Shown: piece after piece, positions 45,589-50,780 of the stretch
How positions within the stretch are numbered: position 1 is the first letter of the stretch
How the letters are laid out: each line of letters begins with the position of its first letter
NCBI GenBank assembly: GCA_963775685.1
Contig: CAVZJV010000014.1
Span: 1,568,001-1,632,000 of the forward strand
Length of the DNA: 64,000 bases
Source of the DNA: Candidatus Bathyarchaeota archaeon
Lineage (GTDB): Archaea; Thermoproteota; Bathyarchaeia; Bathyarchaeales; Bathycorpusculaceae
Direction of reading: 5' to 3'
Notes under the pieces: generated by a model
Seen by the model: only the letters and a program-made list of their open reading frames with translations
Told to the model about the DNA's origin: nothing
Database searches by the model: none
Position numbers and translations under genes: made by a program

Positions 45589-46867
45589 ATGAAAAAATTT
45601 TATTCGTTAATAACTCTGTCAATTCTTTGCCTTTCAGTTCTCTTATCTGTTTCATTTACAGCCAATGCCCAAGATGATGCTTCGTGGCCCATGTTTCACC
45701 ATGACGTAACGCACACTGGCTACTCAAACACAGATGGACCTAGCTGCAAATCAAACTCTTTGGACCTTCCCAATTAGCAACGGTTGGGTATTGACTTCCC
45801 CAGTGGTCGTCAACGGAATAGTCTACTTTACTTCATCCGATAAAGGCATGCACCTCGATACAGCCAACAACAACATTTATGCGGTAAACGCTAAAGACGG
45901 AACAAAGATCTGGAACTACTCAGCCCCAGCTAAAATCTATGGATCTCCAGCAGTTGCAAACGGCATGGTCTTCTTCGGATCTGACGATTATGCAATCTAT
46001 GGATTAAATGCAACGACAGGTGCTTACATATGGAAATGCGTTACCGGAAGCTATGCCGAGGGTTCCCCGACGATTTCAAACGGGATACTCTATGCAGGCT
46101 CAAACGACAATAAACTGTGGGCTATAGACGCTGCTTCTGGCATGCCTCTGTGGAACTTTACAACCGGCGGCCTTGTTACTTCCGCTCCTGCGGTAGCTAA
46201 TGGAATAGTTTATTTCGGCTCATATGACCACAATGTTTACGCTTTGGATGCTTCTACGGGCGCTGAAAAATGGAGTTTTTCAACCGAAAGTGTTGTGGCA
46301 TCTTCTCCCGCGGTCGCTGACGGCAAGGTTTTCATCGGTAGCTTTGACAACAATACCTATGCGTTAACCGCTGACACTGGGGCTTTGGTGTGGAAAGTTG
46401 AAACTGGTTATGACCAATGCGTTCAGGCATCTCCCGCCTTTGCTAACGGTGTAATCTACACTGGCGGCGCTTTCGACTTCAAACTCTACGCTCTAGACGC
46501 CACAAACGGCAACGAGAAATGGACTTTTGTAGCCAACGGAGGAATCACTACCGCACCTGCAGTAGTAGGCAACAAGGTCTACGTGACAGCCACATTGAGC
46601 AACACAGCCTACGCAGTTAACGCACAAAGTGGTGACCAAATCTGGAGCTACCAAACAGACGACAACATCTACTCATCACCAGCAGTTGTTGACGGAGTCG
46701 CATACTTTGGCGCCTACGACGGCACATTTTATGCTGTCGGACAAAACGAAAACGGCACTGGCGGCCAAGAAACCCCAACCACCACATATTACATAATCGC
46801 CATAGCAGCAATAGGACTTATCATTGTCGCGGTCGCAGTCATTGCACTCATAAAAAGACACAAGTAA
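45589..46867 (+). CDS. PQQ/BamB-like 8-bladed beta-propeller surface protein, +1 frameshift near 45741
   Basis: Signal peptide plus WPMFHHD..HTG, then repeated SSPAV.NG.VYFGS.D...YAL.A.TG...W blades; C-terminal TM plus KRHK. Confidence 0.88.
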
Positions 46868-46975
46868 CTTTCTTTAAAGACCCTTTTTTCATTTTTGGAT
46901 TCGGGCTATTTCCATCGTTATGACATTTAGTGAAAATGTTCTGTGCTAAACTCCATGGTACTTGATTGATTTTTC

Positions 46976-47030
46976 TTAGTCAAGAAAGTTTGACTAACAA
47001 AACCACTTTTAGTCAAGAATCCTTGACGAG
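46976..47030. promoter_or_regulatory. Twin palindromic operators TTAGTCAA-N6-TTGAC
   Basis: TTAGTCAAGAAAGTTTGACTAA (46976-46997, perfect 8-6-8) and TTAGTCAAGAATCCTTGACGAG (47009-47030), 33 bp apart. Confidence 0.7.
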
Positions 47031-47140
47031 AACGCTTTTTACACATAAAAATAGTTGTTTTTTACGAGGAAAGCTGGATGGGCAAATGCTCTTCCTTGAT
47101 TCCTTCTGTCGTGGCATGAGGCAAAATTGGAGGCTAAACA

Positions 47141-48134
47141 ATGAGCAAGGTCAGATTATCTATCCAAAAAACCAAAAACAACCGCGACTGTGACTTGTCA
47201 GGAAGACTAAAATCGCTTAACGCAGAATGCCGAAACTGTGCACCAATAACCCCTTTTGAATGTTTATCCGGCTGCAGAGTTTACCTTTTAAAAAGTGAGT
47301 TGAGACATCTTTGGGAAGCAATGGAAAATCCTAACTACCTAAAAGAACTCTTCAACGCTTTAAAAAATAAAGCGCGACTTCAAGTTATGCAAGCGATCGT
47401 AAATGGCACGTGTTCTTTAGGCCATCTTCAAGAGGAATTAAAAAAAGCCGGGCACAACTCCCGCCAAGATTACCTTAACGAAGAATGCCTTCCAGCTCTA
47501 ATGGCAGTGGGTCTTGCTGCACGGGTACGAGAGAATTATCATGCAACCACATTGGGCAACTGCTTAACCCAACTGTTCAGAGACTTTACAGAATTTGTCA
47601 ACGAGCTGCCCACTCACTCCGAGTGCTATGAAGAAGCACTTTTGCAATCTCTTCACGTGGGACCAAAAACGTTTGAAAATATAGAAGCGACTTATTGCAC
47701 CAAAAAATGTTTCGCGAACCCTCAAACGTTTGAGCTCGACTGGTTTGATAAAAACGCCGGAGGCAAGAGCCTACATATTCTTCTTCAGAACAATACGGGA
47801 TCCAAACAAAGAAACTTTGACAACCATTGAACGGACAATTTGTGATGCTGTTGGCTACGAGGGGATTTCTGCAGGAGACCTTGCCAAGAAAACGAAGCTT
47901 TCTTTAAGAAGAACCTACAAGTACCTAAAATGCTTGAAGGGGAAGAAACTGGTTTTCATACGAAGGACACCAAAAGCTTACGCTTTAACCTTTAGGGGCG
48001 AAAAGCTGGCTTTAGTTCTACAAAAGATCCAGCAAACTGTCGAAGATACCTGGGATTCTTCCCGACCAGTCATGCGGGATAACCAAGTGATCCTTGAAGC
48101 TGGAGGTTTAACCACCAATGATTTGCGCTCCTAA
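47141..48134 (+). CDS. Multi-winged-helix regulator with N-terminal CxxC-x7-CxxxC motif, +1 frameshift near 47690
   Basis: CRNCAPITPFECLSGC, ArsR-like NALKNKARLQ, further HTHs (ISAGDLAKKTKLSLRRTYKYLKCLKGKKLV...YALT.RG). Confidence 0.75.
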
Positions 48135-49405
48135 ACCAGTCGACATTGTAAACGTAAGAATCACTCATAAAAAAGCGCATGTGCCGCTTTTGGAGGCGGT
48201 TTCTTTCAAAGACAAGGTCAACGCGTATGCGGAGTTACGCTCGCTTGACAGTGCGCAGGAATCGGTGTTGATTCAAACGTGCAACCGCATTGAGGTTTAT
48301 CTTGTAAGTGAACATGGAGATAAAACGGTTAAATCCGCTTTGGAGTTTTTTGGAAACCGTGCTTCTTCTCACACCAAAGACGCGTGCAAAGCAATTGAGT
48401 ACTCAGTTAACCATGAAGCGCTCAGTCACCTTTTGCGGGTTACTTCTGGGCTAGAATCAATGGTTATAGGCGAAGACCAAGTCATAAACCAAGTCTGGAA
48501 CGCGTACCTTGAAGCTGAAAAGGCAAAGGCATCAGGTCCAGTTCTTAGTCTTCTGTTTAATCGGGCAGTAAACGTTGGTAACCGGGTAAGACGCGAAACT
48601 GGAATAAACAAAGGCGCGGTCTCTGTGGGTTCAGCCGCGGTGGAACTTGCTGAAAACCTTTTGGGAAGCCTTAACGAAAAGAAAATCCTGATCATGGGAG
48701 CGGGCGAAACGGGCACGCTTGTTGCCAAAGCAATGGCGAGGCGCTGTCTCAACCCAATTTTCATAGCTAACAGAACCTACGAGCGTGCATGGCGACTGGC
48801 ACAGGAACTTGGCGGTAAAGCTGTCACCTTTGAAAAGTTAGGTCAAGTACTCGTTGACGCCGACGTTGTGTTCTGCTGTACCTCAGCTCCGCACTTTCTG
48901 TTGACCAAGGATCTAGTATCGTGGTTGACGGTGGCGAGAAAAAACAAAAAGGACTTAGTGGTAATCGATATTTCAAACCCGCGAAACGTCGAGGAAGCAA
49001 TAAGAGAACTGTCATTCGTGAAACTCTATAACCTTGACGACTTAACGTTGATTACTGAGCATAATATACAGGAACGCCAGAAGAGTTTGCAAGAAGCAAA
49101 CAAAATCGTCGATCAGGAACTTGGGTCACTCGAAACGTGCCGTTAAAGCGAATTCTGTGCGAGACATAGTTTCTTGTGTTCTCTTGCAGGTTGAACAAAG
49201 CCGCCGGACAGAACTTGCTAAAGCCCTCGCCATGATGGGAGAGCTGGATAACCGCCAAAAAAAGATTGTCAGCGACTTAACCAGCATCTTGCTCAAGGAG
49301 ACCTTTCTTCCAATTATTGAGAACTTGCGTCAAGCCGCCGCCAACGAAGACCCCGAACTTATAGAGGTTGTAGCAAAATTATTTGAGATCAAGGAAACCT
49401 TGTAG
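48118..49405 (+). CDS. hemA: Glutamyl-tRNA reductase, +1 frameshift near 49135
   Basis: THKKA, QTCNRIE, SGLESMVIGEDQ, VSVGSAAV, GAGETG, DISNPRNV; dimerisation domain in the next frame. Confidence 0.93.
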
Positions 49406-49414
49406 AGGAATACT

Positions 49415-50780
49415 ATGAAGAAAAAGTTTTTACCCTTTTTGTTCTTAATTCCGCTTCTTGTGAGCTTGCTGAGTTCGGGTTTTGGTGGCAATTTCAATAC
49501 AGCGTTAGGAGACAAAGGAAGCGATGGCACAAACAACAACTTTGATTCTTGGCCATGTTTCACGGTGACTTGATGCACTCAGGCTACACTGATTCCTCAG
49601 GGCCAGTAACAAATCAAACTCTGTGGAGTTATCAAACCGGTCCAATACTTCCTCGCCGACAGTTGCCAGCGGTTTAGTCTATGTTGGATTAAATGATGGC
49701 AAAGTTCTAGCCTTAAACGCCAGCAGTGGGGCAGTTATGTGGAGTTACCAAAACGGCGGTGCGGTTTACTCTTCTCCTGCTGTTGCCGATAATGTTGTCT
49801 ACTTTGGATCATGGGACAAATCTGTATATGTAGTTAATGCTTTAACTGGTGCGTTACTTTGGAGTCATCCAACTGGCAGCTATGTGCAGTCATCTCCCGC
49901 TGTTGCCAACGGAGTGATCTATGTGGGCTCATATGACCACTTAACATCGTCCAATAGTGGCAGTCTCTATGCTTTGGATGATTCAACGGGTAAAATGCTA
50001 TGGAGTTATCCAGTTGGCACAGAAGTTTTAACCTCACCCATCGTTGCAAACAAAGTAGTCTACGCTGGCGGAAACGACAACAACTTTTTTGCATTTAATG
50101 CCTCCAATGGAGCAAAACTGTGGAACTACCAAATAGGTAGCTATAGCTCTGATAGTTGGTCGTCTGCAGCTGTCGCAGAAGGTGTACTGTATGTAGGTTT
50201 TGGCGGAGGAACCCTTTTTGCATTTGGCGCTTCAAACGAAACTCCAACGTCCACACCAATCTTAGCGCCGACACCTACGCCAGTCACAAAACCAAATGCA
50301 ACTGTCTCAGCCGTAACAAATAGCGTCGAAACAGTAAACCTTGCCCTAAATGGAAACATCACAAGTTCGCAGATGTCCAACGTTACAATCGCAGTAAAAA
50401 ATGCCACATCAACCAGTTTGTCTTTCACTGTTACAGGCGAAAGTGGCACTATAGGTTTTAGCAACATAACCATTCCAAAAAGCGTAGTGCCTCTGGAGAC
50501 GACGCCATTAATTTTCATAGATGAATTGGCAGCTCAGAGCCAAGGCTTCATCCAAGACGCCGGCAACTACTATGTATGGTATACAACCCATTTCAGCTTA
50601 CATCAAATATTAATCATGTTTACATCAACTAATTCTTCCCCAAACCTTACAGGCTTAAATGGGCAGGCAAGTTGGTTTCAAATTTTATATGGTATTGTGG
50701 CTGCTTTAGTGGTTGTGACGTTAGTTGTGGTTGGGCTTTTCTTTGCTTTGAAAGACCGAAAAAAAAAAGTAAATATTTAG
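49415..50780 (+). CDS. PQQ-like beta-propeller surface protein with Pro/Thr linker and C-terminal anchor; N-terminal frameshifts
   Basis: Signal peptide MKKKFLPF, WPMFHGD..HSG, SSPAVA blades, PTPTP, YVWYTTHFS.H domain, TM plus RKKK. Confidence 0.85.

Follow-up and report, generated by a model that had tools for sequence, protein, structure and literature searches.

The twin-box locus

Here we describe a unit at positions 46976-49405 of a 64,000-nucleotide stretch of the genome of a Candidatus Bathyarchaeota archaeon (this whole stretch is called the window in the following), in which two palindromic boxes precede the gene of a four-cysteine winged-helix protein, the regulator, whose end overlaps hemA2, a second gene for glutamyl-tRNA reductase. 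The arrangement suggests a bicistronic unit in which the twin-box promoter is followed by about 75 nucleotides (nt) of leader, the Cys4 regulator gene, and a translationally coupled hemA2. An earlier note on this DNA had regarded the palindromes as operators of the regulator itself, and the regulator as an autoregulated factor that senses redox state, iron or another metal and gates the synthesis of 5-aminolevulinic acid (ALA). Because the boxes recur throughout the genus in a putative promoter element, the unit is most likely a member of a regulon. The features are, in their order on the DNA:

46976-46997, + strand: box 1 with its flanks, an 8-N6-8 palindrome TTAGTCAA-N6-TTGACTAA
46979-46994, + strand: box 1, GTCAAGAAAGTTTGAC, an exact GTCAA-N6-TTGAC that equals the genome-wide consensus TAGTCAAGAAANNTTGAC exactly
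47012-47027, + strand: box 2, GTCAAGAATCCTTGAC, an exact GTCAA-N6-TTGAC; the identical box 2 is present at the loci L035, L052 and L054
47028-47035, + strand: GAGAACGC, similar to a B recognition element (BRE), immediately 3' of box 2; putative promoter element
47036-47042, + strand: TTTTTAC, TATA-like, directly after the BRE-like element; putative promoter element
47078-47119, + strand: short upstream open reading frame (ORF) of 13 codons plus stop, in the leader, 3' of a GAGGAAAG stretch
47141-48134, + strand: regulator gene, 330 amino acids (aa) once read through, with one extra assembly base near 47688
47228-47275, + strand: codons of C30-x2-C33-x7-C41-x3-C45 (CxxC-x7-CxxxC) of the regulator
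48118-49405, + strand: hemA2, a second paralogue of glutamyl-tRNA reductase, 428 aa when read through the break, with one extra base near 49137

The two GTCAA-N6-TTGAC palindromes, already recognised in the earlier note, are exact and 33 bp apart from centre to centre. Two exact matches in the window compare with a mean of 0.09 in shuffled sequence, and none of 100 shuffles contained two or more. With one mismatch allowed the window still holds two sites at an expectation of 3.16, and 82 of the 100 shuffles reach at least two, so that this count alone is not significant. The proposed spacing of about three helical turns is found here, but the boxes are 24-26 bp apart in eight orthologous loci and 33 bp apart only in the window and in genome G020. 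Because the spacing varies among loci, the three turns are not a conserved feature. What is kept is the order of elements: box 2, about 8 nt (GAxAAxxC) and TTTT(T)A(T/C) follow each other in the same way at the other box sites of the genome, at 10 orthologous loci, and in genome G046. The regulator operon of the window has this order too, with a longer leader than at the other box sites. The short upstream ORF could encode a leader peptide or could merely mark a conserved ribosome-binding region. By eye, an ATG is seen at a similar leader position after a GGAGGAAA-like stretch in most leaders of the regulator's own clade (clade B, see below; L033, L036, L037, L051, L052, L054). An Rfam scan of 46850-47250 detected no riboswitch and gave one chance-level match to a vertebrate long non-coding RNA family (E 0.5).

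The boxes are a genus-wide motif of probable promoters

In the genome of the window, exact GTCAA-N6-TTGAC occurs 18 times compared to six times for the reversed control, and the spacers are biased to GAAA. The extended motif TAGTCAAGAAANNTTGAC has 30 sites (seven exact, nine with one mismatch, 14 with two) and its reversed control none. Sites with at most one mismatch are present in 58 of the 61 genomes of the genus, with 0-1 per strand for the controls. Many genomic sites are tandem, 24 or 33-45 bp apart, and the layout is constant: box 1, a gap of 8-29 nt, box 2, about 8 nt (GAxAAxxC), TTTT(T)AT, and the start codon 25-35 nt further on. Judged by their signal-peptide-like N-termini, the genes behind the motif seem to encode mostly secreted proteins. 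A hydrophobic N-terminal segment was found in 9/10 downstream products here and in 16/18 in G046 compared to 319/1416 background ORFs, with scoring over the first 70 residues of the target products but over the first 50 of the background ORFs. Pfam assigned two of 16 downstream products to NosD/beta-helix proteins and one each to the PQQ-like propellers, arylsulfotransferases, proteasome subunits, and ArsR-like helix-turn-helix (HTH) proteins, with no match for the other 10. The boxes are thus a genus-wide motif, probably of promoters, and not private operators of the regulator-hemA2 unit, as which they had been understood before.

One product behind twin boxes 24 bp apart is a 68-aa protein with CxxCxxCH and a later HxxC (G000:C14:2244273-2244476, or L092:2274-2480; in G046 at L126). 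This zinc-finger-like protein is a further regulon member that is not secreted.

The regulator and its architecture

The regulator gene is represented in the assembly by two ORFs, 47141-47830 and 47730-48134. The protein has the size of about 330 aa and the CxxC-x7-CxxxC motif reported in the earlier note, and the "several" winged helices mentioned there are predicted to be three. The four cysteines C30, C33, C41 and C45 are invariant in 37/37 aligned family members, down to 33% identity, and the check on their conservation therefore turned out well; C162 is not invariant and is replaced by G in several of these 37 sequences. A word-index search found 439 relatives. Among the 120 listed, most are 314-316 aa long and carry generic annotations (winged helix-turn-helix, HxlR or ArsR family); the few source names given are mostly Bathyarchaeia or Bathyarchaeota, and two records of metagenome-assembled genomes have bacterial labels. 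The architecture has thus far been met mainly in Bathyarchaeia-labelled records.

The AlphaFold model of the family member P0003, which is 77% identical to the regulator (mean predicted local distance difference test score 80.9, predicted template modelling score 0.68), consists of an N-terminal helical segment bearing the four cysteines, three winged helices, and a C-terminal helix (284-320). Profile matches in the PDB were obtained for residues 56-108 (HlyU-like activators, E 7.5e-5), 165-215 (an ArsR-family chain, E 8e-5, with further entries including the SqrR structure 6o8m), and 231-297 (NolR, E 4.5e-4). In a wide structural search, Z reached up to 12.2, and each match covered a single winged helix. 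The individual winged helices thus resemble ArsR/HlyU/SqrR, NolR, MarR/PadR or RosR-type proteins separately, and Foldseek found 0 matches to the PDB at E <=0.001 for the whole chain. The third winged helix matches Pfam HTH_45 (PF14947, cut-off 25.5 bits) in P0003 (31.4 bits) and in P0028, P0057 and P0021 (36.7-44.2 bits), and the window's own C-terminal piece is slightly below the cut-off with 25.1 bits. HTH_5 is found only in the main paralogue P0028 (32.9 bits, cut-off 22). In the NCBIfam scan of the family no model attains its cut-off; HTH_metalloreg, for example, scores 25.2 bits in P0003 and 40.2 bits in P0028 at a cut-off of 55. Residues 1-65 are covered by no Pfam or NCBIfam model, and an Atlas search with residues 1-70 gave no usable match, from which we do not claim that the fold of the Cys4 segment is new. 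Full-text searches of the literature found nothing on the regulator family, the box motif or an archaeal hemA regulator. As far as these searches reach, the whole architecture is matched by no solved or described relative, in agreement with the earlier note, to which no such archaeal regulator was known. The most likely role of the four invariant cysteines is to bind a metal, structural or sensory, either as Zn or as an iron-sulfur cluster (Fe-S). That the regulator would sense redox state, iron or another metal is purely an inference.

Paralogues of the regulator and their boxes

The genomes of the genus encode one to three members of the regulator family, and an intact second copy is present in the genome of the window about 68 kb downstream of the window's copy (G000:C14:1683562-1684479). 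The paralogue groups were taken from a quick maximum-likelihood tree of 50 rows with support from the Shimodaira-Hasegawa-like approximate likelihood ratio test (SH-aLRT). The tree left out L030, L050 and L055, which are duplicates of L048, L033 and L037, as well as L043, a contig-end fragment, and L053, which has no regulator. The slow-evolving main paralogue, present in 23/24 genus genomes, forms a clade of 21 rows (SH-aLRT 87), with L001 unresolved beside it in the same group supported by 99. The window's regulator belongs to clade B (14 rows, SH-aLRT 85), and the remaining groups are the divergent clade C (4 rows, SH-aLRT 100) and clade D (5 rows, SH-aLRT 97).

The 350 nt before each gene were searched for boxes, with up to one mismatch allowed; L029 and L053 have no row in this survey, and the row of L043 is the contig-end fragment. 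None of the 22 main-paralogue genes (the 21-row clade and L001) and none of the five clade-D genes have boxes. All 11 intact clade-B genes have them, 10 within about 200 nt and L032 as a single box at -328 only, and so do all four clade-C genes, partly as GTAAAG variants. Apart from L032, the clade-B and clade-C boxes are positioned at -102 to -207 from the start codon. The expectation that the operators are conserved was therefore correct for the orthologues of the regulator, but the element conserved there is the genus-wide motif and not a private one. The three clade-B copies of a sub-branch with in-frame stops have no boxes (G002:C6:141850-142781, which is also frameshifted, G010:C3:42728-43663 and G023:C1:351333-352265); these may be decaying copies. 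A DUF7347-like winged-helix gene of about 450 aa is situated about 1-2 kb from boxless clade-D and stop-containing clade-B regulators, at the following places:

G023:C1:350153-350602
G010:C3:44393-44881
G002:C6:140686-141087
G019:C38:13164-13562
G016:C5:77566-78018

Frameshifts in the assembly

Regulator and hemA2 are each broken by a one-base frameshift in the assembly. The earlier note had asked for the first to be repaired and had missed the second, which splits hemA2 near 49137. The frames were checked against contigs of three public runs from one study, which cover 46900-49500 partially. At each break, the sole covering contig lacks one base, at 47688 and at 49137, respectively. Dropping base 47688 results in an open regulator frame of 330 codons, which reads ...LIAPKNVSRTLKRL... 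as in the homologues, and dropping base 49137 in an open hemA2 frame of 428 codons, which reads ...AVKANSVRDIV... as in the homologues. Because the depths of the covering contigs are below 5 (2.5, and 3.6 for the contig at 49137) and one of them has four other differences, these contigs may derive from a related strain.

The PQQ-like propeller genes on both sides are split as well, that at 45589-46867 by one frameshift and that at 49415-50780 by at least two. Counting all four genes, there are at least five frameshifts within about 5 kb. Because of these further frameshifts in the flanking genes and the length of the contig carrying the locus (2.47 Mb), the breaks in regulator and hemA2 are probably consensus errors of the long contig, with a strain difference being possible. 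If instead the locus were decaying, with genuine frameshifts and both genes being true pseudogenes in this strain, the damage to two neighbouring genes would be readily explained, and the sister subclade of the regulator (G002, G010, G023) does have in-frame stops and has lost its boxes. However, the short-read contig is one base shorter at each break, both repaired frames match their homologues over the break, and the three or more additional frameshifts in the two propeller genes fit consensus errors. We thus regard decay of the locus as quite unlikely.

hemA2 is an accessory paralogue of hemA

HemA is the first committed enzyme of tetrapyrrole synthesis. The regulator stop codon (48132-48134) lies inside the hemA2 frame, so that both genes overlap by 17 nt (48118-48134) as noticed before, and an overlap of this length recurs at L052 (G057). 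The hemA2 product matches GlutR_N (134.3 bits), Shikimate_DH (131.4 bits) and GlutR_dimer (40.6 bits, located in the second hemA2 frame at 49121-49402), each above its cut-off. The equivalog model TIGR01035, with a cut-off of 209.55 bits, gives 374.4 bits for the intact orthologue of hemA2 at L052 and 383.4 bits for the canonical copy. The TCNR motif (T54-C55-N56-R57), which holds the active-site cysteine of HemA, and GAGE (G194-A195-G196-E197), part of the nucleotide-binding motif GxGxxG, are invariant in 24/24 hemA sequences including the window's.

This hemA is not the only one in the genome. It is 62% identical to the canonical hemA, which is encoded on another contig (G000:C11) amid genes for ALAD, a siroheme-synthase-like protein, a CobB/CobQ-like protein, CbiX-CbiC, CbiD, and two tetrapyrrole methylases. 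The genome-wide listing of TAGTCAAGAAANNTTGAC contains no box motif site near the canonical gene. With a threshold of E 1e-20, a search for hemA was successful in 39 of the 61 genus genomes. Because no glutamyl-tRNA reductase was found in the other 22, one of which (G013) is listed as 100% complete, tetrapyrrole synthesis from glutamate looks patchy in the genus. The hemA2 type, 72-82% identical to the window's copy, is present in seven of the 61 genomes, and six of these seven also encode the canonical type of about 62% identity. The regulator is located directly 5' of hemA2 at 6/7 hemA2 loci but beside none of the 23 canonical hemA loci, so that the proposed synteny is true for the accessory gene and fails for the canonical one. 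At the seventh locus (L053, G075), the regulator is absent and twin boxes with TTTTAC immediately precede hemA2. Taken together with the six regulator-linked loci, all seven hemA2 genes are placed behind twin boxes. The pair is flanked by the PQQ-like propeller genes, and no other tetrapyrrole family appeared in the Pfam scan of 16 flanking products (36137-62640) plus four more, in agreement with the missing hem neighbours of the earlier note. In G057, the gene following hemA2 (L052:437-1081, - strand) encodes a 214-aa protein that by eye is hemerythrin-like.

These data bear directly on the idea of a dedicated redox-, iron- or metal-sensing regulator that gates ALA synthesis via hemA. The gene order at six of the seven hemA2 loci, the 17-nt overlap in both the window and L052, and the four invariant cysteines are in line with it. 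However, the hemA gated here is an accessory paralogue, and the canonical hemA in its cluster with the ALAD, siroheme and Cbi genes has neither the regulator (0/23 loci) nor boxes. Five of the 11 box-bearing clade-B regulators (including L032 with its box at -328 only among the 11) belong to genomes in which no hemA was found (G001, G011, G012, G013, G022). In such hemA-less clade-B genomes the regulator is usually located between a nucleoside-deoxyribosyltransferase-like gene and rpl3/rpl4, identified by eye from their N-termini. The main, clade-C and clade-D paralogues never adjoin hemA, and the hemA2 of G075 retains the boxes without the regulator. A dedicated role in tetrapyrrole synthesis is therefore largely contradicted as general function of the family, and as an explanation of this unit we consider it very unlikely.

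Which factor binds the boxes?

If the boxes were bound by the regulator family, motif and family should be found in the same genomes. G040 has 64 motif sites compared to 11 for the control, and G005 has 32 compared to 4, but in a profile search neither G040 (one contig, 97% complete) nor G005 (92% complete) yielded a member of the regulator family. G040 is the exception among the genomes of other families, 15 of which have the motif at background only. Its sites (L103-L118) have the same core with other flanks (TTT...CAAA), and the layout from box 2 to TTTTAC is kept at secreted-protein genes. In G040, many twin boxes have no ORF of at least 50 aa starting within 250 nt. To judge from the N-termini, a DtxR-like gene (L109) follows one of the sites and the gene of a 510-aa HTH protein (L118) another. 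Conversely, five genomes of other families (G025, G029, G030, G031, G039) encode a relative of the regulator at 33-43% identity and have the motif at background. Within the genus, the main paralogue, which lacks boxes, is the sole family member in G003, G007, G014 and G015, genomes with 9-31 strict sites, and the motif-poor genomes G002, G004, G017 and G019 hold the main paralogue too. The strict sites number six or more in each of the 11 genomes whose clade-B gene bears boxes. This distribution is the pattern expected of a target gene, and it fits a self-binding master regulator only if G040 and G005 are exceptions. We therefore somewhat favour the reading that the unit is a target, and as such a member, of a regulon run by a separate, putative box-binding factor.

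The alternative is that the Cys4 triple-winged-helix protein is both autoregulator and master of the regulon. As a dimer, alone or together with the main paralogue that lacks boxes, it would bind the twin boxes and control the secreted-protein genes as well as the operon that it shares with hemA2, and the Cys4 site would modulate the binding. The boxes are conserved at -102 to -207 before 10/11 intact clade-B and 4/4 clade-C genes. The box-bearing family genes of G006, G017 and G018 have GTAAAG variants, and the same variant is found at other sites of these genomes. The number of strict sites in the 11 clade-B genomes and the third winged helix, which is almost identical between paralogues, would also be expected. 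It is harder to reconcile with the 64 sites of the same core and layout in G040, where the profile search found no member although a search with a single protein detected members down to 33% identity elsewhere, or with the 32 sites of G005. Neither do the four genomes with 9-31 strict sites have a clade-B or clade-C gene, and the five genomes of other families have the protein but no motif enrichment. The autoregulation proposed in the earlier note thus has the conserved site 5' of the regulator's own gene on its side and the motif-rich G040 and G005 without a family member against it; it is unproven and possible, but not favoured, and the full version with a regulon master seems rather doubtful to us. 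Somewhat less probable still is the specific form in which the Cys4 (possibly Fe-S) regulator binds the boxes itself and would thereby tie a redox or metal signal to the secreted-protein programme and, from the same mRNA, to the second glutamyl-tRNA reductase, with a replacement factor in G040 and G005. If true, such a self-binding regulator would provide a feed-forward link of extracellular activity to tetrapyrrole (corrinoid) supply.

Several points weigh against a separate factor. None of the candidates examined was established as box-binding factor. Autoregulation classically shows itself in a palindrome conserved 5' of the gene that encodes the regulator, and the regulator described here is the sole regulator gene found with conserved boxes (a DUF7347-type HTH gene has them at 2/6 loci). 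The main paralogue has helices near-identical to those of the regulator in the second and third winged helices. This widespread paralogue could bind the boxes, which would leave only G040 and G005 as exceptions, and because G005 is 92% complete in 60 contigs, a family gene could be missing from its assembly. In addition, promoter, leader and co-transcription were all deduced from the DNA, a search of sequencing runs having listed no RNA data set that contains it, clade B is supported by only 85% SH-aLRT in a quick tree, and hydrophobicity was scored over different lengths for targets and background.

Two other proteins were considered as binders and are not supported. A 285-aa DUF7347/HTH_5 protein, encoded divergently from a box site, has a patchy distribution and boxes at two of six orthologous loci, and the 68-aa zinc-finger-like protein was detected in no more than 11 of 41 genomes, G040 not being among them.

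Proposed function of the unit

Under the reading that a separate factor runs the regulon, this DNA-binding factor would occupy the two palindromes immediately 5' of the BRE and TATA elements, and would switch on the secreted-protein genes together with the regulator paralogue and hemA2. By analogy it is more likely an activator than a repressor because the boxes end just 5' of BRE/TATA, as the activating TrmBL1 sites do. Activation would also agree with the weakness of the TTTT(T)AC element in the regulator operons. The hemA2 product would then add to the supply of the first committed enzyme of tetrapyrrole synthesis and be induced alongside the regulon, from which we infer a link to cofactor demand. 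The regulator itself, a fast-evolving second paralogue of its family, would probably be secondary and act downstream of the box-binding factor.

To our knowledge, transcription control in these archaea is essentially unstudied. The analysis defines a testable regulon with a palindrome of 16-18 nt, a fixed geometry to a TATA-like element and dozens of targets per genome throughout the genus, and it defines a conserved family of regulators to which, over the full architecture, no solved structure corresponds. It also corrects an over-reading of the locus, in which the boxes were private operators and the regulator was specific for tetrapyrroles. The unit suggests that in some members of the genus the entry into tetrapyrrole synthesis is boosted along with the secreted proteins, and the link to hemA2 bears on the balance of cofactor supply, given the 22 of 61 genomes in which no hemA was found.

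Comparison with known systems

Taken singly, each winged helix of the regulator is like those of the ArsR/SmtB and the MarR/PadR/HTH_45-type proteins (HlyU, SqrR, NolR, RosR). As a whole, the regulator differs from the ArsR/SmtB metalloregulators, which have a single winged helix of about 100-120 aa, by its length of 330 aa and its three winged helices. Its invariant cysteines are located in a separate N-terminal helical segment (30-45), whereas the metal sites of ArsR/SmtB proteins are inside or beside the winged helix. The helical Cys4 segment and the long C-terminal helix in the same chain are further differences. Several winged helices in one chain together with a Cys cluster are also found in RPC34/RPC6 and TFE-beta. 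The matches of the regulator to RPC6 and RPC39 are weak, at the level of the winged helix, and not significant (E 0.13-0.29). Unlike in these proteins, the Cys cluster is N-terminal, and nothing ties the family to the basal transcription machinery.

SurR of the Thermococcales has two ArsR-like winged helices and a CxxC redox switch, activates as well as represses, and activates its own gene (PMC12162507). Its short palindrome is present in many promoters, that of its own gene among them, and its CxxC, which forms a disulfide, is part of the N-terminal winged helix (PMC12162507). Both proteins are archaeal, have several ArsR-like winged helices per chain and contain a CxxC, but the regulator differs in that its four invariant cysteines are in a helical segment before the first winged helix. 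No SurR chain was among the 52 PDB sequences matched at E <=1; a distant kinship is still possible.

In vitro, TrmBL1 sites 5' of BRE/TATA activated two of three templates, whereas all nine templates with sites 3' of the promoter were repressed (PMC4706686). As in activation of the TrmBL1, Ptr2 and TFB-RF1 type, the twin boxes are upstream of BRE/TATA, ending about 8 nt 5' of the TATA-like element. The box motif GTCAAGAAANNTTGAC is unrelated to the TGM motif given in PMC4706686, and, unlike for TrmBL1, the direction of control at the twin boxes is suggested only by analogy. hemA2, finally, is like HemA (TIGR01035) in its three Pfam domains and in keeping the TCNR and GAGE motifs. It is unlike the usual hemA in being a second copy outside any tetrapyrrole cluster, in an apparent operon with a regulator, and behind a promoter type that otherwise seems to serve secreted proteins.

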